Shown: one piece after another, positions 1-9,825 of the stretch
Layout of the letters: every line of letters begins with the position of its first letter
Numbering within the stretch: the first letter of the stretch is position 1
Source of the DNA: a virus
Lineage: Duplodnaviria > Heunggongvirae > Uroviricota > Caudoviricetes
Strand: one strand, 5' to 3'
Virus record (IMG/VR): IMGVR_UViG_2713896737_000030
DNA: 9,825 nucleotides
Translations under genes and position numbers: made by a program
Notes under the pieces: model-generated
What the model saw: the letters and a program-made list of their open reading frames with translations, nothing else
The model's database searches: none
Told to the model about the DNA's origin: nothing

Positions 1-1230
1 ATGAGCAGAGCACTTAACAAACTGAGCGATACACAGCTGAGGAAAATCAACGGCACACCCGCCCAAAAAACAGCCTTTCTTAATGACGGTGGAAACCTGA
101 GCGTCAGGCATTCAACCAGTGGCCTTTTAACCTGGTATTTCACTTACAGGGCCGGAACGGGAAGGGGGGCACCACCGGAACGCATTAAGCTGGGAAATTA
201 TCCTGATCTGAGCCTGAAATCAGCCAGGGAAAAAGCCGCCCAGTGTCGCGCATGGCTGGCAGAGGGGAAAAATCCACGTCATGAGCTTAATTACACCGTA
301 CAGGAAGCGTTAAAGCCGGTAACGGTTGGCGATGCGCTCACCTACTGGCTTGAGTCGTACGCAAAGGAAAACCGCGTGGATTATGCCGCCCTGAAAAAGC
401 GCCTTAATAATCACGTAATACAGCACATTGGTGCTATGCCGCTGGATAAATGCGAGCTACGGCACTGGCTGGCCTGTTTTGACCAGGTGGCAAAGCGAAC
501 GCCTGTTACTGCCGGATTCTTGCTACAGACGTGCAAACAGGCGCTTAAGTTCTGCCGGAGGCGGCGCTATGCAATCAGCAACGTTCTTGATGATATGAGT
601 GTGGCGGACGTTGGGAAAAAACCGGATATAAGCGAGCGTGTCTTAAGCACCAAAGAACTGGGCGAATTATTGCAGGCACTGGACAAAAAAATATTCTCCC
701 CCTACTACATCGCGTTAATCCGCCTCCTGATTGTGTTCGGATGCCGGACGGTAGAACTGAGGTTATCGGAGATCAGCGAGTGGGATTTTACCGAAATGCT
801 CTGGACCGTTCCGAAGGAGCACAGCAAAACGAAGGTAGCCATATTCCGGCCTATACCGGAAGCAATACTGCCGTTCATCACGCAGCTGGTGGAGCAGAAC
901 AGGCACACGGGCTTATTGCTGGGGGAAGTGAAACAGGAGGCCAGCGTATCGCAGTATGGAAGATTAGCGCACAGGAGGCTTAATCACCCTCACTGGTCAC
1001 TGCATGACATCCGGCGCACCTTTACAACCATGCTGAACGATTTAGGCGTTGATCCGCATGTCGTGGAGCAGCTTACAGGCCACCAGATGCCAGGAATGCA
1101 GCGAGTTTATAATCATTCCCGTTATCTGGATGCGAAACGCAATGCGCTGGATATGTGGACGGAGCGGTTAGGGATACTGGCGGGAACACATGAAAACGTA
1201 ACCACGCTACCAGTAGCCAGAAGAAAATAA
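1..1230 (+). CDS. int: Tyrosine recombinase / integrase, P4-like family (409 aa)
   Basis: Full-length ORF beginning at base 1. N-terminal arm-binding-like region (LSDTQLRKI...FLNDGGNLSVRHSTSGLLTWYFTYR) and C-terminal catalytic region with HDIRRTFTT...GHQ...YNHSRY, consistent with the R-H-R-Y tyrosine recombinase signature. No tRNA or att site is visible in the window, so the integration site must lie outside it. Confidence 0.9.
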   Translation: MSRALNKLSDTQLRKINGTPAQKTAFLNDGGNLSVRHSTSGLLTWYFTYRAGTGRGAPPERIKLGNYPDLSLKSAREKAAQCRAWLAEGKNPRHELNYTVQEALKPVTVGDALTYWLESYAKENRVDYAALKKRLNNHVIQHIGAMPLDKCELRHWLACFDQVAKRTPVTAGFLLQTCKQALKFCRRRRYAISNVLDDMSVADVGKKPDISERVLSTKELGELLQALDKKIFSPYYIALIRLLIVFGCRTVELRLSEISEWDFTEMLWTVPKEHSKTKVAIFRPIPEAILPFITQLVEQNRHTGLLLGEVKQEASVSQYGRLAHRRLNHPHWSLHDIRRTFTTMLNDLGVDPHVVEQLTGHQMPGMQRVYNHSRYLDAKRNALDMWTERLGILAGTHENVTTLPVARRK

Positions 1231-1247
1231 TTTTTTTCGTGTTTTTT

Positions 1248-1263
1248 CAGTATGCGCATACTG
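1248..1263. promoter_or_regulatory. 16-bp perfect palindrome CAGTATGCGCATACTG immediately after the int stop, preceded by T-runs
   Basis: Read directly from sequence; self-complementary. Not a canonical terminator on either strand (no U-tract following the hairpin in the transcribed sense). Possible protein-binding site. Confidence 0.35.
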
Positions 1264-1285
1264 GATATGCGAACAGATACAACGT

Positions 1286-1325
1286 GCAACAATGAGCAAC
1301 AATGTGGAACAACTACGAACAAGAG
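1286..1325 (+). repeat. Four tandem ~10-bp units (GCAACAATGA / GCAACAATGT / GGAACAACTA / CGAACAAGAG) in the int-alpA intergenic region
   Basis: Direct reading: GCAACAATG occurs at 1286-1294 and 1296-1304, followed by two degenerate units. The 10-bp period (one helical turn) suggests phased protein-binding sites. Confidence 0.5.
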
Positions 1326-1594
1326 GCGAAAAAGCGTACGGATTTATAAGTAGCTGATTTTTAATGTGTTACTGGTTTTTTATACACTAGCGAATCACTC
1401 TTTAAAGAGCGAGAAAAAAGGCATGGAACAATATTTTATGCCTTTGTATTAACATGAATTTAAAAGATTTTATTCTTACTTTTTCATTTTCTGTAAATCA
1501 TACATCCTCAGTATTTGCCATTCATCACTCTAGCGGGAACAATACGACACAATAAGACACCTGATGACTCTTTAAGAAACGAAAGGGGGCAATA

Positions 1595-1783
1595 GTGTTA
1601 AGCACTGATCGGTTTATACGTGAAAAAGAATGCGAAAAACTAACCGGCCTTAGCCGTACGTGTCGCTACCGCCTGGAAAAGGCCGGACAATTCCCATCAC
1701 GTCGTAAACTTGGCGGTCGTTCCGTTGGCTGGTCTTTATCCGAGGTTCTGGCCTGGAAGGATAGCTGCAAGGCAGTTCATTAA
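1595..1783 (+). CDS. alpA: AlpA-family phage transcriptional regulator (small HTH, excisionase-like), GTG start
   Basis: 62-aa ORF with an SD-like AGGGGG 6 nt upstream of GTG at 1595. Protein (FIREKECEKLTGLSRTCRYRLEKAGQFPSRRKLGGRSVGWSLSEVLAWK) matches the AlpA/Xis-like pattern. Lies directly downstream of int in the same orientation, as in Gram-negative PICIs and CP4-57-like islands. Confidence 0.85.
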   Translation: MLSTDRFIREKECEKLTGLSRTCRYRLEKAGQFPSRRKLGGRSVGWSLSEVLAWKDSCKAVH

Positions 1784-1929
1784 TCACGCTGGCGGCACAC
1801 AGCCGCCACACATCAATCATCTGAACACAGAGCTATAACCATGAAGATTGAATATACGCCAGAACGTGGGCGGGGATTCGTTCGCCCTGGTGAGACTGGA
1901 AAACCACAAAATTGGGGTTTTTCAGGCAT

Positions 1930-1958
1930 AAAAAAAGCGGCCCCGAAATGGAGCCGCC
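1930..1958 (-). terminator. Putative rho-independent terminator for the minus-strand two-gene module
   Basis: On the minus strand: 5-bp GC stem (GCGGC / GCCGC, + coordinates 1937-1941 / 1953-1957), 11-nt loop, then a 7-T tract (complement of the A-run at 1930-1936). About 95 nt downstream of the minus-strand ORF stop at 2053. Confidence 0.55.
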
Positions 1959-2052
1959 TTTCTGAACAGATAACCCGCTGCGCCTTATGTGTATATGATC
2001 CCAAACATAAGCACGGGGATGATAGCCGCTATCAGGCTGGTGGGCAATGCTA

Positions 2053-2226
2053 TCAGTCTGGTTCAGTTCGTTGCCATACCTGCAATGGGCGCGTTTCCCT
2101 GTACTCTTTAAGGAATTGCTCAAGGGCAAAAGCACATGGCGCGAATCTTTCTGATTCATGCTCTATCTTTCTGCGCCGTCTTTTCCGTGCCGGTGATAAT
2201 GTTTTGGTCAATTCTTTATCGGTCAT
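2053..2226 (-). CDS. Hypothetical small basic protein (57 aa from the second ATG; 62 aa if the ATG at 2241 is used)
   Basis: ORF-track entry 2053..2241 (-). The second ATG (2226) has an AGGA-type SD about 7 nt upstream, whereas the first ATG is preceded by a 7-bp hairpin (2248-2254 / 2268-2274). Contains a KRRRRK basic stretch. Rare codons (AGA, AGG, ATA) are consistent with horizontally acquired DNA. Function unknown. Confidence 0.4.
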   Translation of the reverse strand: MTDKELTKTLSPARKRRRRKIEHESERFAPCAFALEQFLKEYRETRPLQVWQRTEPD

Positions 2227-2283
2227 TGTGTTGTCCTGCATAGCAATGCGCCGTAATACCTCACACCACGGCGCTGATAGTTT

Positions 2284-2457
2284 TTATCCTTTGGGTTCTA
2301 TGCCGCGTTGCTGTAATTCTTTGCGGAGAACGCGTTTAATCCAAGTGGCTAAAGATGTGTCGCCATCGGCCTTAGCAGCTTCTTCTAGCTGCGCTCTGAA
2401 GTCTTCCGGTAATCGCATTTGGTATGGAGGCGAACGTTTTTCTAATGGTGTTGACAT
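2284..2457 (-). CDS. Arc/MetJ-type ribbon-helix-helix DNA-binding protein (57 aa); not in the ORF track because it is under 60 aa
   Basis: Manual translation of the minus strand gives MSTPLEKRSPPYQMRLPEDFRAQLEEAAKADGDTSLATWIKRVLRKELQQRGIEPKG. This has the RHH pattern (beta strand YQMRLPEDF, helix, G-x-S/T-L turn, second helix) comparable to P22 Arc and Mnt. SD-like AAGGG lies 8 nt upstream of the ATG. Confidence 0.65.
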   Translation of the reverse strand: MSTPLEKRSPPYQMRLPEDFRAQLEEAAKADGDTSLATWIKRVLRKELQQRGIEPKG

Positions 2458-2499
2458 GGTAATTACCCTTTATTGCTATACCTACATGGTAATTACCAT
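2451..2499. promoter_or_regulatory. Operator/promoter region: two copies of ACATGGTAATTACC (2454-2467, 2484-2497) spaced 30 bp, each containing the palindrome GGTAATTACC; TTGACA -35 hexamer at 2451-2456 and TGcTATACC extended -10-like at 2474-2482
   Basis: Read directly. The second copy is a perfect 14-bp palindrome, ATGGTAATTACCAT (2486-2499). The first copy overlaps the RHH start codon and SD region. Both flank a plausible + strand sigma70 promoter that faces the downstream + strand operon. Confidence 0.5.
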
Positions 2500-2587
2500 T
2501 GTACTTGCCATTACACAAAAATCAACGCCCCGCAGTGCTGGGAACACATACGGGGCGTCTAACCAACAACGTAAACTAGGAGCCGTT

Positions 2588-2785
2588 ATGGTTGCCGTAA
2601 ATCATATACCACACCTTGTACACACACAAACGGCCTTTGTGTGGCGTTTTCTGGCACTGAGTGCCGGAGAATCTCAAATCATCCACGTAACCGCCTGGAC
2701 GGAACGCGAAGCGCGTAACCGTTGCCCGTCCGGTTGTGTTGCTGTATTTGCCGCCCGTATTCGTCAGGAGGTGCGCCATGATTAA
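2588..2785 (+). CDS. Hypothetical small protein (65 aa)
   Basis: The 3' part of the long 1841..2785 ORF. ATG at 2588 has a good SD (AGGAG, 5 nt spacing). Stop overlaps the next start (ATGATTAA), suggesting translational coupling. Function unknown; small proteins at this position in such islands are often annotated Icd-like or Ash-like, but I cannot confirm that from sequence. Confidence 0.55.
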   Translation: MVAVNHIPHLVHTQTAFVWRFLALSAGESQIIHVTAWTEREARNRCPSGCVAVFAARIRQEVRHD

Positions 2786-2990
2786 TCTGTCACTTACTGA
2801 CCTTAACCGCATTCAGTTTCGTGAGAAATTCACAGGGCAGCTACTGGTCAATGTGGATAAAGGTCGCGTGGTGTGTAATTACCACTTACCAGATGAAGCA
2901 ATTGTCGCCACAAGGGAATCATTACAGGAAATCACAAAACGTGCCGGAATGATTAACACGAATATTCAGGGGATGCTTTATGCACAATAA
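2778..2990 (+). CDS. Hypothetical small protein (70 aa)
   Basis: ATG at 2778 preceded by AGGAGG (7 nt spacing). Overlaps the upstream and downstream genes in an operon-like arrangement. Confidence 0.55.
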   Translation: MINLSLTDLNRIQFREKFTGQLLVNVDKGRVVCNYHLPDEAIVATRESLQEITKRAGMINTNIQGMLYAQ

Positions 2991-3444
2991 AACCACACCG
3001 GACGCAGCCGCCGAAGCCATCAAAACGCTGATGCACGCGCTGATTGATATTTCTGTTATCGCGGACAGGGCACATAAGCACGCCACCAGCGAAACAGAAT
3101 ATGCCGGTGCTTTCGTTCCTCACTCACTGGCTGTCATGCAATTTAGTGCTGATACGGCGCTGAATGAGGCCAAAGCTATCCTGATTGCTGATTGTGAAAA
3201 TGGGGGGGTTATGCGTGATGATCGTTTTAATTCCCTGAAACAGGAATTTTCCGGCGTTCCTGATGATGCGGCTGATGCGCTTTCGTCAATGCCAGAACTT
3301 ATTAGAGCGGCTTTTTTCTTACTTTCCACGAGAGAATATAAATCAACGGGGCTTGATGTACTGAATATCGCCGCCGATTATGCGGAATATGTGGCAGAGG
3401 CGCGTTATAGAAGAAAATTTCCTGAGGATGTAAGCCATGCGTGA
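2980..3444 (+). CDS. Hypothetical protein (154 aa)
   Basis: ORF with an AGGGGA SD-like sequence. Overlaps the next gene start by 8 nt (ATG at 3437, TGA at 3442-3444). No recognisable motif. Confidence 0.7.
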   Translation: MHNKTTPDAAAEAIKTLMHALIDISVIADRAHKHATSETEYAGAFVPHSLAVMQFSADTALNEAKAILIADCENGGVMRDDRFNSLKQEFSGVPDDAADALSSMPELIRAAFFLLSTREYKSTGLDVLNIAADYAEYVAEARYRRKFPEDVSHA

Positions 3445-3670
3445 TATTTACCACCAAACAATAGACCGCGCATTTCTTGCACTTTCTCACAGTGAAAACA
3501 TGATGGAAATATTGCGCATATGGCTTGAAACACTTGGCGACAATGAACGCGACAAACAAAAATCAAGAATTGCCACGGCATTAATAACGCTTCTTGAGCC
3601 TGTAATAATGGAACTGCAAGAAATAGATCTATTGCACGACAGATATAAAGAACAGCACACCGGAGAATAA
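3437..3670 (+). CDS. Hypothetical protein (77 aa)
   Basis: Start overlaps the previous stop (translational coupling). No recognisable motif. Confidence 0.65.
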   Translation: MRDIYHQTIDRAFLALSHSENMMEILRIWLETLGDNERDKQKSRIATALITLLEPVIMELQEIDLLHDRYKEQHTGE

Positions 3671-3675
3671 AAATA

Positions 3676-3975
3676 ATGAAACTTAAATATTCTGGCTTAA
3701 CTGCCAGTGGCAACACTCACCCTAAATTTACGCGCGGTGATATTTACCGCGACCAGTACGGCGGCACGGTAATGATTAAGGGCGTGGAAGAACGGCGCGT
3801 AACCTACCGCCGTGAAGGTTACGAATATGATTGCGTGATGCCTGTTTATCAGTTCCGGCGTGATTTTTCTCTGGTACAGACCGCGCCGCATAACGTGCCC
3901 ACCAGCAACGCCAGGGCACGGGCAAACATCCAGAAGCTGAAAACCATGGTTAACGGATTCAGGGGCAAGAAATGA
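3676..3975 (+). CDS. Hypothetical protein (99 aa)
   Basis: GGAGAA SD upstream. Stop overlaps the ATG of the replication gene (ATGA at 3972-3975). Confidence 0.65.
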   Translation: MKLKYSGLTASGNTHPKFTRGDIYRDQYGGTVMIKGVEERRVTYRREGYEYDCVMPVYQFRRDFSLVQTAPHNVPTSNARARANIQKLKTMVNGFRGKK

Positions 3976-5372
3976 AAAGCGCACCGAACTTAAAAAAACA
4001 GCCTTACGACAAGATGACCGAAGTCATTATTTTTGCGGGTAGTGATGCCTGGGCACATGCGAAACAGTGGCAGGAACAGGACGGGCGACTGGCTGGCGAT
4101 AATGTGCCTCCCGTTGTGCTGGCTGATGATCAACTGGATGAACTGGCAGAACTGAGAATCATCGACGAGGGGCGCTATTGTGTCCGGCTGTACAAGGCAG
4201 GCCACATCAGGCCATCAAATATTAATGCCATTGCGCACAAGCTGGCGGCGGCGGGTGTAACTGATGCGAATTATTACCCCGAAGGGATGCACAGCCATAT
4301 GCGGGAGAACTGGCGCGAATACCTGGAACGGGTGCGCGGGAAAGAGCCGGCGGAAGAAAAAAACCACCAGCGAAAAACCACGCTACCGATGAGCGTTGGA
4401 TCTACCGGATACGACACGCAACTGGATTACGTGGTTAAGGGGATTATTCCGGCGGTATCGCTATGCAGCATATACGGGGCTAGCGGGTCCTATAAATCAT
4501 TCCTTGCCGGATCGTGGGCGTGCCATGTTGCCACTGGTCGCCAGTGGGGAGGCCGCAGGGTTGCACATGGTGCGGTTCTCTATGTGGTTGGTGAAGGCGG
4601 TATAGGTGTTCCGCGTCGTGTAAAAGCCTGGGAGGTTGTGCACGATGAGCAGGTGAAAAATCTGTATCTGGTAAACCGCCCCATCTTTCCGGCTGCCCCG
4701 CTTGATGTTGATGAAATGGTTATCGCTGCCCGTCAGGTGGAGCGGGAAACGGGTAAACCTGTACGCATGATTATTCTGGATACGCTGGCGCGTTGCTTTG
4801 GTGGGAATGATGAAAATGATTCCCGTGATATGGGGGCGTTTATCCGTGGTTGTGACGAACTGAAACGACGCACAGGGGCCACGGTGCTGGTGGTTCACCA
4901 TTCCGGCAAGGATGAGACGAAAGGCGCGCGCGGTTCCAGTGCATTTCGTGCTTCGCTGGATGCTGAATACCGGATACGCAGGGAGGACGCAGGAAGCGAA
5001 GCGCTGGTTATCTCATGCACCAAAATGAAGGACGCGGAGGAACTCAAAGAAGCCGCATATGACTTACGCGTGGTGGAGCTTTTTACCGACGCTGACGGTG
5101 AATTAATCACGTCGCTGGTGGTGGTGGATGATCCGCGCCCTCCTGTTGAACTGGAGCGCATCGAGGAGGCAGGGAACAAGACGGAAAACCATACCGCGCT
5201 ATGGGGGTGCATCCGTTCACGCACACAGAACGGCGACAAGTGCACGATCCCGCTGTTACGTGATGACATGAAAAAGCTGGGGTATGAAATGAAAAACTTC
5301 CGGCGCTGGCTGTACAAGCTGGAAAAAGATGGGGTTATTCGTATCGATGGGGATGATGTAGCGCCGCTATAA
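3972..5372 (+). CDS. Replication initiator ATPase/helicase, RepA-like RecA-fold (AAA_25-type) domain with N-terminal extension (466 aa); PICI pri/rep-like
   Basis: Walker A-like GASGSYKS, Walker B-like RMIILD, and downstream VVHHSGKD...RGSSA motifs typical of RepA/DnaB-like RecA-fold ATPases. Positioned after alpA and followed by an iteron array. Confidence 0.85.
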   Translation: MKSAPNLKKQPYDKMTEVIIFAGSDAWAHAKQWQEQDGRLAGDNVPPVVLADDQLDELAELRIIDEGRYCVRLYKAGHIRPSNINAIAHKLAAAGVTDANYYPEGMHSHMRENWREYLERVRGKEPAEEKNHQRKTTLPMSVGSTGYDTQLDYVVKGIIPAVSLCSIYGASGSYKSFLAGSWACHVATGRQWGGRRVAHGAVLYVVGEGGIGVPRRVKAWEVVHDEQVKNLYLVNRPIFPAAPLDVDEMVIAARQVERETGKPVRMIILDTLARCFGGNDENDSRDMGAFIRGCDELKRRTGATVLVVHHSGKDETKGARGSSAFRASLDAEYRIRREDAGSEALVISCTKMKDAEELKEAAYDLRVVELFTDADGELITSLVVVDDPRPPVELERIEEAGNKTENHTALWGCIRSRTQNGDKCTIPLLRDDMKKLGYEMKNFRRWLYKLEKDGVIRIDGDDVAPL

Positions 5373-5563
5373 AAGTGAGGAGCAAAAGCGAGGGGGATAG
5401 AAAGAGGGCCAAAATTAGCCCGCTCTCCCTCACTTTTCGACCTGTATACATCCTCAAAAGTGAGGGGTAAAAAAATACTTATGAAACACACACATAGAAA
5501 AACCGAAAATCCCAACTGCGACGAAGTGAGACGCTTGAAAAAGTGAGGCGAAAAAGTGAGAGG
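5372..5563. repeat. Iteron array (candidate replication origin): at least 6 copies of AAGTGAG, consensus (A)AAAGTGAGG, including one inverted copy
   Basis: Direct copies at 5373-5379, 5457-5463, 5524-5530, 5541-5547 and 5554-5560; inverted copy at 5428-5437 (CCTCACTTTT). Degenerate copies at 5385-5396 and 5401-5410. Lies immediately downstream of the rep gene. Confidence 0.65.
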
Positions 5564-5572
5564 TTGCGAGAA

Positions 5573-5824
5573 ATGACCCAAAAACGCAGAGACAGAACAG
5601 AGCCAAAATATAAAGCGTTAGACATGACTGAGCACACCTTAAAGGTGGCAATCAGAACGATAGACCGCCACACGCGGGAAGGATACGCGAAGGAACATCC
5701 CGACCTGATAAGCGCATTCATGACCACGGCGGCGGCAAACTTTGCCACGCTGACAGAACGGGAGATTGCCGAAGCGGAACAGGTAACAACCATCAACGTT
5801 AAAACCGGAGAGGTGGAATTATGA
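5573..5824 (+). CDS. Hypothetical protein (83 aa; start uncertain, alternatives at 5543 and 5620)
   Basis: ORF-track 5543..5824, but the 5543 start would lie inside the iterons. ATG at 5573 has a GAGAGG SD-like sequence upstream. Stop overlaps the ssb start (ATGA at 5821-5824). Confidence 0.5.
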   Translation: MTQKRRDRTEPKYKALDMTEHTLKVAIRTIDRHTREGYAKEHPDLISAFMTTAAANFATLTEREIAEAEQVTTINVKTGEVEL

Positions 5825-6231
5825 CGGCACAGATAGCCGCTTACGGGCGGCTGGTGGACGACCCGCAGGTAAAACAGACCAGCAAGGGCACACCGATGAC
5901 GCTGGCGCGTATGGCGGTATCTTTGCCATGCAGCCAGGCACAGGACGGACAGGCGACGTTATGGTTATCGGTCATCGCATTTGGCAAACAGGCCGGCTTC
6001 CTGGCTAAACATCAAAAAGGCGATGTTGCCAGCGTATCCGGCACGATGCAGGTAAGCCAGTGGACCGGACAGAACGGAGAAACGCGGCAGGGCTGGCAGG
6101 TTATCGCAGACAGCGTAATCAGTGCCCGCGCGGCACGTCCAGGCGGGAACAGACGCAAAACCACAGGCACACAGGGTAATCAGCCACCAGCGGGAGGCGA
6201 TGACCCTTACGGTGATGATATTTCGTTCTGA
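5821..6231 (+). CDS. ssb: Single-stranded DNA-binding protein (SSB-like OB-fold) with Gly/Gln-rich linker and acidic C-terminal tail (DDPYGDDISF)
   Basis: N-terminal region resembles E. coli SSB (RLVDDPQVK...; WLSVIAFGKQAGFLAKHQKGDVASVSGTMQVSQWTGQNGETR compared with [40 protein letters not shown]). C-terminus resembles the SSB DDDIPF tail. Confidence 0.75.
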   Translation: MTAQIAAYGRLVDDPQVKQTSKGTPMTLARMAVSLPCSQAQDGQATLWLSVIAFGKQAGFLAKHQKGDVASVSGTMQVSQWTGQNGETRQGWQVIADSVISARAARPGGNRRKTTGTQGNQPPAGGDDPYGDDISF

Positions 6232-6241
6232 GGGGGTGACG

Positions 6242-6514
6242 ATGGTACATGACCGCATAGCGGAGGAACTGGAGGCGAAAGGCTTTTACCGGAGGGCGGC
6301 GGCGCGATGGGGTGAAGTCATGCAGCTGGTGGAGACAGACAAGGAACGGCATCACATCACGATGCGACGGCTGGAATGTTCAAGGAAGGCACAGAGGGCA
6401 CCGGAGCCGCCGGATAATTTCGGAGACCTGAAAAAGGCAGTCGATCGCACTTATGCCGAAATGGGTATAGATGGTGCTGGTGATGAAATATGGCGCAATT
6501 ACCAGGACAGCTAA
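6242..6514 (+). CDS. PerC-family transcriptional regulator-like protein (90 aa)
   Basis: Start ATG 6242 with a GAGGGGG SD. N-terminus MVHDRIAEELEAKGFYRRAAARW matches the PerC/Pch signature (AExLExxGxWRRAAxRW). The longer track ORF from 6122 overlaps ssb and is rejected. Confidence 0.7.
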   Translation: MVHDRIAEELEAKGFYRRAAARWGEVMQLVETDKERHHITMRRLECSRKAQRAPEPPDNFGDLKKAVDRTYAEMGIDGAGDEIWRNYQDS

Positions 6515-6520
6515 TCAAAC

Positions 6521-6544
6521 AGCCGGAGAAATCCGGCTTTTTTT
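6521..6544 (+). terminator. Rho-independent terminator (copy 1 of a repeated hairpin)
   Basis: AGCCGGA-GAAA-TCCGGCT stem-loop (7-bp stem, GAAA tetraloop) followed by 7 Ts, directly after the PerC-like stop. Confidence 0.8.
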
Positions 6545-6640
6545 GCACCAGTTGAAACGGTATGGCGCATTACCGGGTTTTCGTCACGGTCAGGCATAGT
6601 TACTATCTGAAACAAACAGACACAACAGAGGAAAAAAACA

Positions 6641-6865
6641 ATGCCGATGAAATTTGATGAGATATTAAAACAGCGTGATAAATACCATGCTGACAACATG
6701 GAGACGATGAGCATCAATGATTACCGCGCATTCCTGGAGACGGGCGCACTGATTGAAAAGGATCAGCATGGTTTTGTGAGATGTGCTCTATCCGGTGAAA
6801 TGCTGGCGGTAAATCCTGAACAGATAGATGCATTGATAGAATTTCTGAAAGAGATCAGAGACTGA
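6641..6865 (+). CDS. Hypothetical small protein (74 aa), a stand-alone gene bounded by terminators
   Basis: AGAGGA SD 8 nt upstream of the ATG. Flanked by terminators at 6521-6544 and 6885-6907. Confidence 0.6.
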   Translation: MPMKFDEILKQRDKYHADNMETMSINDYRAFLETGALIEKDQHGFVRCALSGEMLAVNPEQIDALIEFLKEIRD

Positions 6866-6884
6866 GCCAGCACACAGCACACAT

Positions 6885-6907
6885 AGCCGGAGCAATCCGG
6901 CTTTTTT
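6885..6907 (+). terminator. Rho-independent terminator (copy 2 of the repeated hairpin)
   Basis: GCCGGA-GCAA-TCCGGC followed by 6 Ts. Confidence 0.75.
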
Positions 6908-6913
6908 GCGCCC

Positions 6914-6955
6914 AAAAAAAGCCCGATAAGGTCAGAGGGTTCTTATCGGGCTTTT
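6914..6955. terminator. Bidirectional terminator-like hairpin (10-bp stem GCCCGATAAG / CTTATCGGGC, A7 upstream, T4 downstream)
   Basis: Perfect 10-bp inverted repeat at 6921-6930 / 6942-6951 with an 11-nt loop. The A-run at 6914-6920 gives a 7-U tract when read on the minus strand. Confidence 0.6.
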
Positions 6956-7032
6956 GCATATGAGGTTTTTGGATGCACTGGCGTTCGTGATCGGGATAAT
7001 CATTTCATAATTTGCAACATAACTCAATATCA

Positions 7033-7062
7033 TTGCATAAAATGCAATTCTGATTATAATCA
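7033..7062 (+). promoter_or_regulatory. Candidate promoter for the head-gene operon: consensus TATAAT at 7055-7060 inside the 12-bp palindrome TGATTATAATCA (7051-7062); upstream inverted repeat TTGCA-N5-TGCAA (7033-7047)
   Basis: Read directly. AT-rich region between the bidirectional terminator and the first gene of the capsid operon. Which -35 hexamer is used is unclear. Confidence 0.35.
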
Positions 7063-7116
7063 GGACTGGATAAACATCCAGTTATGATTTTTTTAGTCGA
7101 AGAGGAATTTCTTACT

Positions 7117-7323
7117 ATGGCTGAAGAGAAAAAAAGCGGTGTTTCGGTGTACATAAGCCCCGAAATCGTGGAGGTGCTCAAGCAGCGCCACAAAAAAAAC
7201 TATGAAGCTGGCGTTGCGGCTGGACTGGATCCGCTGATGACGCCGGAGCCGTCGATAGGTTCACTTGTACGCTCTTATTTACTTGCGGCGCTTGGGATGC
7301 ATAAAAATTATGGGGGTGAATAA
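7117..7323 (+). CDS. Hypothetical small protein (68 aa; alternative start 7084), translationally coupled to the capsid gene
   Basis: AGAGGA about 10 nt upstream of ATG 7117. Stop TAA overlaps the capsid gene ATG (TAATG at 7321-7325). Confidence 0.5.
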   Translation: MAEEKKSGVSVYISPEIVEVLKQRHKKNYEAGVAAGLDPLMTPEPSIGSLVRSYLLAALGMHKNYGGE

Positions 7324-8378
7324 TGGCAGGCAAAGCAACGGCACTTAACACTAACCAGCTTTTCATGTACCTGAATCGCGGGGATATTGCGGATTTTAAA
7401 TTCAGCCCTCTGTTTACCACGCTGTTTTTCCCGAACGTGGCGACATTCAGCACGCAAAACATCATGCTGGATACCCTGGACATTGAAGAAGTCACCATGT
7501 CGGCGTTTTGTTCGCCTATGGTGGGTAGCCAGGTTCAGCGCGATAAAGGGTACGAAACCAGCACAATCAAACCTGGCTACATGAAGCCAAAGCACGAAAT
7601 CGATCCAACGAAAACCATCATGCGCATGGCTGGAGAAGATCCGGCACAGCTTAACGACCCTACCTATCGCCGTATGCGCCTGATTACTGGCAACATGCGC
7701 CGCCAGATAAACGCCATTAAGGCACGCGTGGAATGGCTGGCGGTGAATGCGGTAACGACCGGAAAAAACATCATTGAGGGCGAAGGCATAGAACGCTATG
7801 AAATCGACTGGAAAATACCGGAAAACTGCATCATAGAGCAGGCCAAGGGTAAAAAATGGTCCGAGCAGGATAAAGACATGCACGACCCAATCTATGACAT
7901 CGAGCTTTATGCTGATCAGGCTGGTTGCCCCGCAAACGTCATGATTATGGGCGCTGAGGTATGGCGCACATTACGCAGCTTTAAAAAATTCCGTGAGCTG
8001 TACGATCTTTCCCGTGGTTCAGAATCCGCCGCCGAACTGGCCTGTAAAAACCTGGGCGAAGTGGTGAGCTTTAAAGGCTATCTTGGTGATCTGGCCCTTA
8101 TCGTCTATTCCGGCAAATACACTGACAGCGATGGTACCGAAAAATATTTCCTTGAGCCTGATTTGCTGGTCCTAGGTAACACCAACAATAAAGGGCTGGT
8201 GGCCTATGGTGCGATAATGGATCAGGAAGCGGTAAGAACGGGCGCAACACAAAACATGTTTTACCCGAAAAACTGGATTGAGGACGGCGATCCGGCGATT
8301 GAGTACGTGCAGACACACAGTGCACCGCAGCCGGTACCGGCAGATATTCGCAAATTTGTTACCGTCAAAATTGGTTAA
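7323..8378 (+). CDS. Major capsid protein, phage lambda gpE-like family (351 aa)
   Basis: Several conserved blocks match lambda gpE as recalled: FKFSPLFTTLFF vs FKFDPLFLRLFF; PGYMKPKHEIDP vs PGYVKPKHEVNP; DPTYRRMRLI vs DPAYRRRRII; YPKNWIEDGDPAIEYVQTHSAP vs YPKNWVTTGDPAREFTMIQSAP. Length is similar (351 vs 341 aa). Strong SD (GGGGGTG). Confidence 0.85.
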   Translation: MAGKATALNTNQLFMYLNRGDIADFKFSPLFTTLFFPNVATFSTQNIMLDTLDIEEVTMSAFCSPMVGSQVQRDKGYETSTIKPGYMKPKHEIDPTKTIMRMAGEDPAQLNDPTYRRMRLITGNMRRQINAIKARVEWLAVNAVTTGKNIIEGEGIERYEIDWKIPENCIIEQAKGKKWSEQDKDMHDPIYDIELYADQAGCPANVMIMGAEVWRTLRSFKKFRELYDLSRGSESAAELACKNLGEVVSFKGYLGDLALIVYSGKYTDSDGTEKYFLEPDLLVLGNTNNKGLVAYGAIMDQEAVRTGATQNMFYPKNWIEDGDPAIEYVQTHSAPQPVPADIRKFVTVKIG

Positions 8379-8390
8379 CGGGGGGATTCT

Positions 8391-8726
8391 ATGGACACTC
8401 CATACATTGAGTTATTTGCAGGCAGTCAGCAGGTATCCACGACGTTGGTACATTTTGCCGCTGATGCTGGCGTTATTCAGGAATTTACCCCGCTGATGCT
8501 GGCAGACAATGGCGAGTTTAAGCCGTGGGATGGTCAGGAATCTGGCAAGGCTGTTTATCTGACCTCGTACCCTGTGGACACGTCAAAGCAGAAATCAGCA
8601 CAGTGTTACAAGACGGGGATATTCAATATTGCCGCCGTTAACTGGCCTGAGAGCGTCGACACCGATGCGAAAAAATGCGCCGCCTTTGCGGGTTCCGGCG
8701 TATCCGTTCAGCCGCTGGCCCGATAA
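8391..8726 (+). CDS. Head decoration protein, phage lambda gpD-like (111 aa)
   Basis: TPLMLADNGEFKPWDG vs lambda D TPLMLDTSSRKLVAWDG; CYKTGIFNIAAVNWPESVDTDAKKCAAFAGSGVSVQ vs [36 protein letters not shown]. Length 111 vs 110 aa. Confidence 0.8.
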   Translation: MDTPYIELFAGSQQVSTTLVHFAADAGVIQEFTPLMLADNGEFKPWDGQESGKAVYLTSYPVDTSKQKSAQCYKTGIFNIAAVNWPESVDTDAKKCAAFAGSGVSVQPLAR

Positions 8727-8738
8727 GCAGGGGGAACG

Positions 8739-9152
8739 ATGGCAACGAATGAAAGCATCATGACGCTACCGCTGGCGAGTAAATTTAAAGTCGAAGCGCG
8801 GGCAATGGCTGACAGAGGTTTATCAACCTATGAGGCCGTATATCAACTAAACAAACTGGAAGAGCAGGACAAGCCGTGCGCTGATGCGATTATGGCGCTT
8901 CATGAGCATAAAGACTATCAGCCGCTGTTGCGTGCAATGGCAAACGTGCCTTGTATCGATGTTGGTACGGCTAAAAGCATCCTTAGCATGACCATAGAGC
9001 AGGAACGTCCGAAGGTTGCGCCGGAACTTACCGCAGCCTTTGAAAACTTTATGGACATGCACAGCCCGCAAGCCGTATCAGCTGGCATGGCATACGATGG
9101 CAGAAACCAGGGCGATGACGGCGACATCGATCGCATACTGAAAACCATCTGA
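8739..9152 (+). CDS. Hypothetical protein (137 aa) between the decoration gene and the cos site
   Basis: ORF with a CAGGGGGA SD and a terminator just downstream. No recognisable motif; its position suggests a head or packaging accessory role. Confidence 0.7.
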   Translation: MATNESIMTLPLASKFKVEARAMADRGLSTYEAVYQLNKLEEQDKPCADAIMALHEHKDYQPLLRAMANVPCIDVGTAKSILSMTIEQERPKVAPELTAAFENFMDMHSPQAVSAGMAYDGRNQGDDGDIDRILKTI

Positions 9153-9157
9153 GACAA

Positions 9158-9180
9158 GGCCGGAGAAATCCGGCTTTTTT
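9158..9180 (+). terminator. Rho-independent terminator (copy 3 of the repeated hairpin)
   Basis: GCCGGA-GAAA-TCCGGC followed by 6 Ts, 6 nt after the stop of the 137-aa gene. Confidence 0.75.
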
Positions 9181-9204
9181 ACGGGTCCTTCCTGGAATTA
9201 TGGC

Positions 9205-9245
9205 CCGTTACGGGGCGGCGACCTCGCGGATTTTCGCTATTTATG
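9205..9245. other. Lambda-type cos site: the 12-nt sequence at 9213-9224 (GGGCGGCGACCT) matches the lambda cohesive end (cosN), with lambda-like flanks
   Basis: Window sequence GTTACGGGGCGGCGACCTCGCGGATTTTCGCTATTTATGAGCCTTTTCAGG compared with the lambda left end as recalled, GGGCGGCGACCTCGCGGGTTTTCGCTATTTATGAAAATTTTCCGG. The match is near-identical through CGCTATTTATGA and diverges thereafter, where lambda cosB lies. Sits about 135 bp upstream of a Nu1-like gene, as in lambda. Confidence 0.75.
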
Positions 9246-9318
9246 AGCCTTTTCAGGGTGGTGGTGGTGGTTTTGTTGTTTGATCTATCTTTATGAATGA
9301 AAAGGGAAAGATGCAAGC

Positions 9319-9356
9319 AATACACCAACCTGAAGCAGTAATTAAGTTGGTGTATT
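9319..9356. promoter_or_regulatory. 11-bp perfect inverted repeat AATACACCAAC / GTTGGTGTATT with a 16-nt loop, abutting the terS-like start codon
   Basis: Read directly (9319-9329 and 9346-9356). Candidate protein-binding site in the cosB-equivalent region, or an mRNA structure affecting translation initiation. Confidence 0.4.
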
Positions 9357-9357
9357 A

Positions 9358-9702
9358 ATGAAATCTCATCTGATGAACAAAAAAAACATGGCGAAAAGCT
9401 GCCGTGTAAGTGCGACAGCGTTCGACAAGTGGGGAGTAACTCCCGTTGAGCGTAAAGGCCGTGAGGCGTTTTATGATGTTGCCAGCGTGATAGAAAATAG
9501 GGTTAACAATGCAATTAGCCAGCTTATAAACGACAAAGGCGAGATTGACGATGATGAACTTTTACGAGTCAGGATCAGATTACTGACAGCACAGGCAGAG
9601 GCGCAGGAACTTAAAAACGATCGCGGTGACGTGATTGATACTGAGTTTTGCCTGTACGCGCTTTCAAAGCTGGCGAGTCAGATTTCATCAATCATGGACT
9701 GA
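9358..9702 (+). CDS. Terminase small subunit, lambda Nu1-like (PICI Rpp-like); 114 aa, apparently truncated at the 3' end by an IS insertion
   Basis: LTAQAEAQELKNDRGDVIDTEFCLYALSKLASQISSIMD matches lambda Nu1 [42 protein letters not shown]. N-terminal region resembles the Nu1 winged-HTH region. Nu1 is 181 aa; here the reading frame ends with a TGA that is the first three bases of the IS (9700-9702). The exact start is uncertain (ATGs at 9358, 9373, 9388; none has a good SD). Confidence 0.75.
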   Translation: MKSHLMNKKNMAKSCRVSATAFDKWGVTPVERKGREAFYDVASVIENRVNNAISQLINDKGEIDDDELLRVRIRLLTAQAEAQELKNDRGDVIDTEFCLYALSKLASQISSIMD

Positions 9703-9825
9703 ACCGCCCCGGAAATCCTGGAGACTAAACTCCCTGAGAAAGAGGTAAACAGGATGACTAAAAATACTCGTTTTTCCCCCGAAGTCCGTCAGCGGGCGAT
9801 TCGTATGGTTCTGGAAAGTCAGGAT
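9700..9825 (+). mobile_element. IS3-family insertion sequence (IS629/IS1203-like left end), partial; continues beyond the window
   Basis: Left terminus TGAACCGCCCCGGAAATCCTGGAGACTAAACTCCCTGAGAAAGAGGTAAACAGG followed by the OrfA start. The terminal sequence and OrfA N-terminus match IS3-group elements as recalled. Confidence 0.75.
9754..9825 (+). CDS. IS3-family transposase OrfA (HTH subunit), N-terminal 24 codons; partial, runs off the window
   Basis: MTKNTRFSPEVRQRAIRMVLESQD matches the conserved N-terminus of IS629-like OrfA (MTKNTRFSPEVRQRAVRMVLESQ...). SD GAGAAAGAGG upstream. Confidence 0.8.
   Translation, partial: MTKNTRFSPEVRQRAIRMVLESQD

Follow-up and report, generated by a model that had tools for sequence, protein, structure and literature searches.

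A terminator-bounded, probably accessory single-gene cassette in an Escherichia coli O157:H7 phage satellite

A viral DNA sequence of 9,825 nt (IMG/VR record IMGVR_UViG_2713896737_000030; the whole stretch is hereafter called the window) contains, between a block of replication and regulatory genes and a block of head genes, a gene of 74 codons set between putative transcription terminators. This arrangement raises the question of whether the gene is an accessory unit that is gained and lost or a constant part of an adjoining module, and of what its product may do. The original prediction, made from the sequence of the window, regarded it as a moron-like gene, transcriptionally isolated from its neighbors, and considered anti-helper or host-benefit functions.

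The satellite and the anatomy of the cassette

The stretches of the window that we compared (6100-7400 and 6400-7100) were 100% identical to many E. coli O157:H7 chromosomes, and in strain TW14359 the island is located between roxA and phoQ. The window is an E. coli O157:H7 satellite of the O-island 51/Sp7 type at the roxA-phoQ site, and this type of island is a phage-inducible chromosomal island (PICI) of the EcCICFT073 kind (PMC6092414, PMC3378721). The paper on EcCIMP1 deals with a different island. On the 5' side of the cassette, the island carries genes for an integrase, an AlpA-type regulator, RgdR and a RepA-type helicase, the origin, a small ORF, and genes for SSB and a regulator of the PerC family. 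On the 3' side of the cassette are the genes for a lambda-E-type capsid protein, a gpD-like decoration protein, a Nu3-like protein and a Nu1-like small terminase. In the Sakai strain, the counterpart of the 74-codon gene is ECs_1589, which adjoins pchE (ECs_1588). A microarray study found ECs1574-1585 and ECs1590-1600 to be lineage-specific and the block in between not to be (PMC1890555), which is consistent with a mosaic presence and absence of the cassette. A literature search for ECs1589 and the Z-numbers found no paper naming ECs_1589 and no functional or transcript data. The features relevant to this work are as follows.

3676-3975: gene for RgdR (DUF4222)
5373-5561: origin iterons, AAGTGAG(G/A)
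6516-6549, plus strand: first copy of a direct repeat (hairpin, T-run, GCACC); repeat families D1 and D7, spacing 363-364 nt
6521-6545, plus strand: predicted terminator T1, at the end of the perC (pchE-type) unit; left cassette boundary
6546-6640, plus strand: cassette leader with a weak candidate promoter (6578-6606) and a Shine-Dalgarno (SD) sequence, GAGGA (6628-6632)
6641-6865, plus strand: gene for the 74-residue protein; ORF with an ATG start, RefSeq CDS, ECs_1589 of Sakai, WP_001132079 type, phrog_1957
6880-6912, plus strand: second copy of the direct repeat (hairpin, T-run, GCGCC)
6885-6907, plus strand: predicted terminator T2, which closes the gene and forms the right cassette boundary
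6913-6959, both strands: predicted two-way hairpin T3, the left edge of the lambda-type head module

All of the features claimed in the original prediction, namely the 74-codon gene with its own SD sequence, one terminator before it and two after it, were found where they had been placed. T1 is located directly 3' of the perC stop codon, and its stem-loop (6521-6538) has 7 bp including 5 GC, a GAAA loop and a T7 tail (folding energy -13.5 kcal/mol, z = -3.4 relative to shuffled sequence). T2, 20 nt past the stop codon of the 74-codon gene, has a stem-loop (6885-6902) of 7 bp including 5 GC, a GCAA loop and a T6 tail (-15.9 kcal/mol, z = -4.5 in the same comparison); the loops of T1 and T2 are both of the GNRA type. 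T3 has perfect 14-nt arms (6917-6930 and 6942-6955) in a stem of 14-15 bp and, as expected from its description as bidirectional, folds on both strands, with energies of -21.7 kcal/mol on the plus strand and -20.3 kcal/mol on the minus strand (z about -4). It is predicted to be the better terminator on the minus strand, because the A7 run upstream of it becomes T7 on that strand, and only T4 is found downstream on the plus strand. With their GC-rich hairpins and U-tracts, T1, T2 and T3 are all predicted from sequence to be intrinsic (Rho-independent) terminators. A scan of the whole window returned 20 terminator sites, compared to 12.0 ± 3.2 in shuffled sequences.

T1 and T2 are direct repeats of each other: over 28 nt they are 89% identical, the similarity reaches to about 33 nt, and the spacing is 364 nt. 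This relation was absent from the original prediction.

The SD sequence is located 8-9 nt 5' of the ATG codon. Promoter scoring detected no sigma-70 promoter of at least 9/12 between T1 and the ATG codon; the best candidates scored 7/12, for example TTTTCG-17-TACTAT at 6578-6606. The predicted transcriptional isolation of the gene therefore holds for the flanking terminators T1, T2 and T3 only, and an efficient T1 could keep expression of the gene low. The Shigella allele hardly differs from the window in the 3' half of its leader, compared to about 84% identity over the entire stretch 6399-6906. A run of six or seven A residues is located 5' of the ATG codon. Gene calls with an N-terminal extension, giving 100 residues, were rejected: distant homologs do not have the extension, and in the window it is out of frame because the run is A7 and not A6. 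The GC content of the cassette is 44%, compared to 50-56% in the flanking genes. An Rfam scan of 6300-7300 gave sub-threshold noise only.

Presence and absence of the cassette among satellites

We used the segment 6100-7400 as a megablast query against 5426 complete E. coli genomes. The matches broke at only a few points: 6542 (the end of T1), 6906 (the end of T2), 6915 (the start of T3) and 6885 (the start of T2). The window carries perC, T1, the cassette, T2, T3 and lambda-type head genes, in this order. PKF11 and CFT073 have perC, one hairpin, T3 and the same lambda-type head genes, with the cassette missing. In Sakai, perC, T1, the cassette and T2 are followed by a complete HK97-type capsid/packaging module, which makes the island a capsid-forming PICI (cf-PICI), and 09-02E has the same arrangement minus the cassette. 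Nissle 1917 lacks both perC and the cassette and has ssb, the same hairpin, T3 and the lambda-type head genes. The 336-nt cassette is the sole difference at the junction between the perC hairpin and the head module in PKF11, CFT073 and 09-02E. Similarity to the cassette-less islands stops at 6542-6543 and restarts at 6880 for PKF11 and at 6873 for CFT073; similarity to the Sakai cf-PICI stops at 6906, and that to islands sharing only the head module (Nissle, O18 and ATCC 25922) begins at 6915. Cassette-bearing islands contain two copies of the hairpin and cassette-less islands one. The perC gene is likewise optional and closed by the same hairpin. The gene is thus not a fixed core component of the head module, being absent from the collinear islands of PKF11, CFT073, 09-02E and Nissle.

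Junctions between modules of related islands carry this hairpin in 1194 of the 5426 genomes, which is more telling than the terminator scan as a sign that it is no product of chance. The median is a single copy per genome, so the sequence is specific to the element and not repeated across the genome. The interior of the cassette was present at 90% identity or more in 540 of the 5426 genomes, a set in which O157 is over-represented. Taken over the 907 E. coli genomes with related islands, and with the same over-representation, the cassette occurs in these 540 and is missing from roughly 40%. In an evenly spaced sample of the megablast rows, the cassette was present in 36 of 60 rows, and about ten had perC without the cassette.

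The repeated hairpins at the edges provide what we regard as a firm explanation for the gain, loss and reassortment of the cassette. The ssb, perC and 74-codon gene units each end in the same hairpin terminator of roughly 30 nt, and recombination at these repeats, or insertion beside one of them, could add or remove the cassette cleanly. By the same route, the cassette may be shuffled among islands with differing replicases and head modules.

In the E. coli group, nearly identical alleles of the gene are combined with three types of replicase (RepA, DUF927 and D5-type; Shigella has the cassette with a third replicase type) and with two unrelated types of head, which speaks against a dedicated link to one module or the other. 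Co-variation of the gene with the replicase or the head type was rejected on these grounds. EcCICFT073 is induced, replicated and packaged, and interferes with lambda (PMC6092414, PMC6739421); since it does so without the cassette, the gene is dispensable for the basic satellite cycle. The gene is also not among the packaging-module genes mutated in EcCIEDL933, and it does not qualify as a core (life-cycle) gene of PICIs or cf-PICIs. We are highly confident that the unit is real, optional and bounded by terminators, that is, an accessory cassette. Its clean presence and absence, deviating GC content, and association with head modules of two unrelated kinds and with replicases of at least three types bear out the original description of the gene as moron-like.

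Lambdoid phages such as HK97 and lambda carry morons, which are extra transcription units inserted between two of the phage genes. Like a phage moron, the cassette is a single small gene that separates two genes lying side by side in relatives, with its own predicted intrinsic terminator, a deviating GC content and a variable presence, and a relative of the gene in a prophage (described below) occupies the classical moron slot before the terminase genes. Unlike phage morons, the cassette is carried by a satellite, its best promoter candidate reaches only 7/12 (with none of at least 9/12), and both of its edges are copies of one hairpin, which closes neighboring units as well.

Homologs with 30-47% identity were found in Citrobacter, Klebsiella, Ewingella, Arsenophonus, Phytobacter, Pectobacterium, Kluyvera, Kosakonia, Enterobacter, Serratia, Leclercia, Erwinia and Proteus. 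The order of the locus was constant in 11 of 13 species-representative loci, and it recurred in further elements of Citrobacter, Klebsiella and Ewingella as well as in a Logan-assembled contig (L016, host not known). It consists of the integrase, AlpA, a replicase (RepA/AAA_25, DUF927 or D5-type), the iterons, the homolog, usually a GC-rich hairpin, sometimes reverse-oriented cargo, and a capsid module of the HK97 type or with a protease-capsid fusion. An exception is the Arsenophonus element, in which the homolog follows terL. A recurrent convergent neighbor of 170 residues had no family assignment. Across about 20 loci, which represent about 12 genera, the start of the gene is 20-60 nt past the origin iteron array, and the hairpin and then the capsid module come after the gene. 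Such a constant slot after the origin indicates a long-standing satellite gene and not random cargo.

This constancy, together with the 0 matches among cultured phages (50,697 records, see below), would fit a factor of the satellite life cycle, which could tune origin firing or copy number, or switch or time the capsid and packaging operon. We consider such a role unlikely. EcCICFT073 is functional without the gene (PMC6092414, PMC6739421), many natural cf-PICIs also lack it (that of 09-02E is one example), and no co-variation was seen with the RepA, DUF927 or D5-type replicases or with the two head types. The acidic character of the protein, the lack of a DNA-binding fold in its model and the occurrence of distant relatives outside satellites, all described in the following sections, also speak against it.

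A small acidic protein of an undescribed family

The 74-residue protein matched phrog_1957 (E = 2e-42), a family whose function is not described. Scans of the protein with Pfam, NCBIfam and PADLOC gave nothing above threshold (for PADLOC, 0 families at E <= 0.01), and weak matches to DUF7189 and PDF2_C were rejected. The alleles of the window, Sakai and Shigella differ with dS values of up to 0.37 and dN/dS values of 0.09-0.14, which shows that purifying selection acts on the protein. The 27 family members in the alignment are all acidic (pI 4.6-5.9); for the window protein, the pI is 4.8 and the net charge -6.

An AlphaFold2 model built with the family alignment (pLDDT 90.4) has the order H-H-H-E-E-E-H, i.e. 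three helices followed by a sheet of three strands and a helix at the C terminus. The gene encodes a small, acidic alpha/beta protein that belongs to an undescribed family. Positions D41, H43, A56, E60, Q61, D63, L65 and L69 are invariant or nearly so. A Foldseek search of the model against BFVD returned nothing at E < 0.3, and structure comparisons revealed no resemblance to any known fold, antitoxins included. In a profile search, the protein locally matched residues 82-121 of the N.BspD6I nickase (E = 2.5e-4), and this match has the look of a wing-type hairpin. We rejected a winged-helix DNA-binding domain of the N.BspD6I/FokI recognition type, since the fold comparison gave no support for it.

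The local match to this wing-like segment, although marginal, could be taken in favor of a regulator of host genes, one that would modulate virulence or physiology as the neighbors PchE (PerC family) and RgdR do. Also consistent with this idea are the position of the gene next to pchE, in the same style of terminator-closed cassette, and the modulation of LEE expression by the RgdR protein of this island (PMC3378721). The 74-codon gene shares with the genes for PchE and RgdR its small size, its accessory nature and the satellite that carries it; unlike these two proteins, its product is acidic, has no DNA-binding signature and is related to neither of them in sequence or fold. We consider a role in host gene regulation very unlikely.

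A profile search identified 211 family members. They are single-domain proteins of about 65-105 residues, apart from a few with probably miscalled extensions, and they include sequences from Pseudomonas, Comamonas, Gallionellales and a planctomycete as well as many metagenomic sequences. The invariant D, H, A and Q positions are kept across the family. One candidate from the representative search, a 1383-residue repeat protein (P0019), was left out as a low-complexity/repeat artifact. A tblastn search with three family members against 50,697 GenBank phage records gave 0 matches, and the family is present on 24 IMG/VR contigs. A homology search had been suggested as a check of the original prediction, and it showed the gene to be conserved, with its phrog_1957 assignment, a dN/dS of about 0.1 and homologs across Enterobacterales and beyond.

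These results also bear on whether the ORF is a non-functional remnant, or an annotation artifact, between two terminators. Such a reading could draw on the missing recognizable promoter and on the sporadic deletion and fusion variants seen in single assemblies (P0004, P0012, P0015 and P0016). It is contradicted by a dN/dS of about 0.1 between alleles that have diverged to a dS of up to 0.37, by the conserved start, SD sequence and length, by the 211-member family with its invariant positions and by the confident structural model. As judged from these signs of selection and conservation, we regard it as effectively refuted.

Neighbors of distant relatives and possible functions of the protein

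Outside satellites, relatives of the protein were found in several kinds of context. On a prophage contig (L102), the relative and the phage genes are on opposite strands, with the relative immediately upstream of metallopeptidase, DUF2280 and terminase genes, and upstream PhageMetallopep/DUF2280 neighbors in several other viral or metagenome contigs suggest a similar layout there. In a Pseudomonas ICE, a relative begins 15 nt after a HEPN_RiboL-PSP gene, beside Gabija-like genes; on a Gallionellales contig, a relative precedes HEPN_AbiU2 within a restriction/Abi island, and on another contig one follows a TIR gene. Other operonic partners include AbiTii (10-nt gap), RES (20-nt overlap), GNAT and a trypsin-like protease, and HEPN partners lie 15-49 nt from the relatives. 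Fic and HigB-like genes were also found nearby.

Of the 76 non-redundant loci, 33 have a neighbor on the same strand within 120 nt (37 neighbors in total). About 10 of these 37 tight neighbors carry HEPN (four cases), TIR, AbiTii, RES, GNAT or trypsin-like Pfam domains, and about 60% of the operonic neighbors are without a recognizable domain; these are raw counts, from metagenomic loci whose ORFs were called by a simple script, and defense islands are dense in effectors anyway. PADLOC matched neighbors to nuclease-effector, SduA, bSEFIR and candidate-system (PDC) models, one neighbor each, some of these neighbors probably being shared with each other or with those annotated by Pfam. The raw counts, in a minority of the sampled loci, are suggestive of an association of the family with toxin/Abi effectors.

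The context of the distant relatives appears to point to a toxin/Abi-effector partner rather than to the anti-helper or host-benefit role that had been proposed for the gene. According to that proposal, the protein would be a stand-alone anti-phage or anti-helper inhibitor benefiting the host or the satellite. PICIs and P4-like satellites do hold interference and defense cargo in variable slots (PMC9122126, PMC10085698), the cassette is located at a variable junction where other satellites have reverse-oriented cargo, the relative on the prophage contig L102 is in a typical moron position before the terminase genes, and relatives occur in defense islands as well. The protein, however, had no PADLOC match, and with 74 residues and no enzymatic motifs it is not likely to be a complete defense system. 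Where a partner is present, it is an effector-like gene, which makes the small protein an accessory component, and EcCICFT073 interferes with lambda without the gene (PMC6092414, PMC6739421). On balance, we find a stand-alone inhibitor improbable.

The junction itself resembles the cargo hotspots of satellites (P4-like, PMC9122126; PICI, PMC10085698, PMC6092414) in being prone to recombination and in holding cargo that differs among relatives. [quoted passage not shown] Unlike these, the cassette junction is located between the replication and capsid modules, and its gene had no match to a defense model.

Small acidic proteins encoded first in a toxin operon are typical type II antitoxins. The 74-residue protein is small and acidic and has no DNA-binding fold, and the operons of its relatives hold varied toxin/Abi effectors, with the relative often first and tightly coupled; these features suggest an antitoxin-like protein. 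Mobile elements are also known to carry solitary antitoxin-type counter-defense proteins, as exemplified by T4 Dmd, which acts against RnlA/LsoA. Based on these considerations, we tentatively propose that the 74-residue protein may be a protein-binding, antitoxin-like neutralizer, which in satellites would serve as an orphan counter-defense factor; this seems to us the likeliest of the functions considered, short of a probable one. The relatives outside satellites would represent a constant small partner beside a variable toxin/Abi effector in two-gene operons. The solitary satellite copy would be an orphan neutralizer that blunts effectors encoded by the host or by rival elements, either during the development of helper and satellite or after transfer to, and establishment in, a new cell. 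The basic cycle of the satellite does not require the protein. The anatomy of the cassette, its presence and absence, the selection on the protein, the synteny and the neighborhoods of the genes are observations; we infer the expression, the binding, the target and the benefit of the protein alike.

No toxin gene is adjacent to the gene in the window or in any satellite examined. Since the window copy is solitary, the antitoxin-like reading is based entirely on relatives with 30-45% identity. The window gene does not stand in the tight operon typical of type II antitoxins, and several distant relatives do. For the window gene, we propose that it works like an antitoxin and do not claim membership in the class. 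The constant slot after the origin could count against the antitoxin-like reading, in that it could mean a satellite-specific role. In its proposed logic, the neutralizer resembles T4 Dmd, as a solitary small protein on a mobile element with relatives paired with toxins; unlike Dmd, to which it has no sequence relation, it is carried by a satellite and not by a lytic phage.

A broader version of the same idea is that the family constitutes a new, widespread and highly promiscuous antitoxin/immunity domain with many unrelated effectors as partners (HEPN, TIR, RES, AbiTii, GNAT and nucleases), of which Enterobacterales satellites captured a solitary copy against Abi toxins. The gene would then close an early operon right after the origin, and the disarming of Abi toxins would let the helper and the satellite finish their development. 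Kurata et al. in 2022 reportedly described a domain of this kind, PanA/DUF4065 or 'Panacea', as a promiscuous antitoxin domain pairing with many unrelated toxins. The family studied here is similar in that one small conserved family is found beside diverse effectors (HEPN, TIR, RES, AbiTii, GNAT and protease). It differs in having no homology to PanA/DUF4065 and in that its association with effectors is seen in a minority of the sampled loci. We consider this broader version doubtful. If it is true, the gene would, to our knowledge, represent the first dedicated class of anti-Abi genes for PICIs and cf-PICIs.

In summary, the cassette is an accessory cassette of a known type of satellite; it is not a recognized defense gene, and its product has no demonstrable membership in an antitoxin family. 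This type of satellite is well studied, through O-island 51 of O157:H7 and the related EcCICFT073 and EcCIEDL933, yet ECs_1589 has been without a described function. The shared hairpin terminator serves as a junction at which ssb, perC and the cassette are added, lost and recombined with differing replicase and head modules, and the 74-residue protein belongs to a broad uncharacterized family that recurs beside toxin/Abi effectors. If the protein is not a neutralizer, the gene would be an ordinary accessory gene; if it is a promiscuous neutralizer, it would add a layer of counter-defense to satellite biology and define a new family of antitoxins.

Two satellites at the roxA-phoQ site

In O157:H7 lineages, the roxA-phoQ site was found to hold two different satellites, one represented by the window (1-9825) and the other by the Sakai locus L009. 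The former, a PICI, combines RepA with lambda-type head genes; the latter, a capsid-forming PICI, has a DUF927 primase. All that the two have in common is int-alpA, rgdR and the orf83-ssb-pchE-74aa block. Earlier microarray results on which ORFs are lineage-specific agree with this two-satellite picture (PMC1890555).

Replication, head and packaging regions

The following features were located in these regions:
window 5373-5561, six iterons AAGTGAG(G/A), shortly after the 3' end of the repA helicase gene
window 7064-7093, hairpin with a T-run, directly 5' of the first lambda-type head module gene
L009 (Sakai) about 8030-8056, hairpin with a T-run, immediately 5' of the capsid ATG of the HK97-type module

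The six iterons are likely to constitute the satellite replication origin, and the gene that follows them probably starts at 5573, in agreement with RefSeq, rather than at 5543. The hairpins ahead of the head modules could serve as attenuators or antitermination targets for late operon control. At the right end of the window, positions 9699-9825 belong to an IS3-family insertion sequence, of which they form the left end (TGAACCGCCCCGG...). Because this element truncates the Nu1-like (rpp-like) small terminase gene to 114 aa (180 aa in the O157:H7 strain TW14359), the window copy of the island is probably packaging-defective.

The cassette and the perC-to-head junction

Two regulator genes are carried in the window:
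window 6242-6514, PchE (PerC-family regulator)
window 3676-3975, RgdR

In EHEC, each of them has a known or proposed role in regulating LEE type III secretion. The perC gene likewise forms an optional cassette, and the hairpin that closes it is the one that also closes the cassette of the 74-aa gene. In one related island (H69, NZ_CP080260.1, strain 135), a ProQ/FinO-family gene is inserted at the perC-to-head junction, which is further evidence that this junction is a cargo insertion point.

The 42-aa ORF at 6471-6599 (RefSeq WP_001301569.1), labelled 'trigger factor, frameshifted' in Sakai-type records, spans the terminator T1 entirely and looks like an annotation artefact. The A run at 6633-6638, between the SD and the ATG of the 74-aa gene, is A6 or A7 depending on the allele; since this difference sets the frame of an upstream ATG (about 6562) relative to the gene, some databases contain 100-aa gene calls.

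A recurrent convergent neighbour

Capsid-forming satellites from Citrobacter, Ewingella, Kluyvera, Enterobacter and Proteus contain a conserved 170-aa gene with no family assignment, which lies right after the terminator of the homologue of the 74-aa protein and is convergent to the homologue:
L002 8294-8806, minus strand, 170-aa gene, recurrent convergent neighbour
L012 4427-4939, minus strand, 170-aa gene, recurrent convergent neighbour
L021, L023, L029 and L030, further loci with the 170-aa gene

This 170-aa gene could represent either linked cargo or a functional partner.
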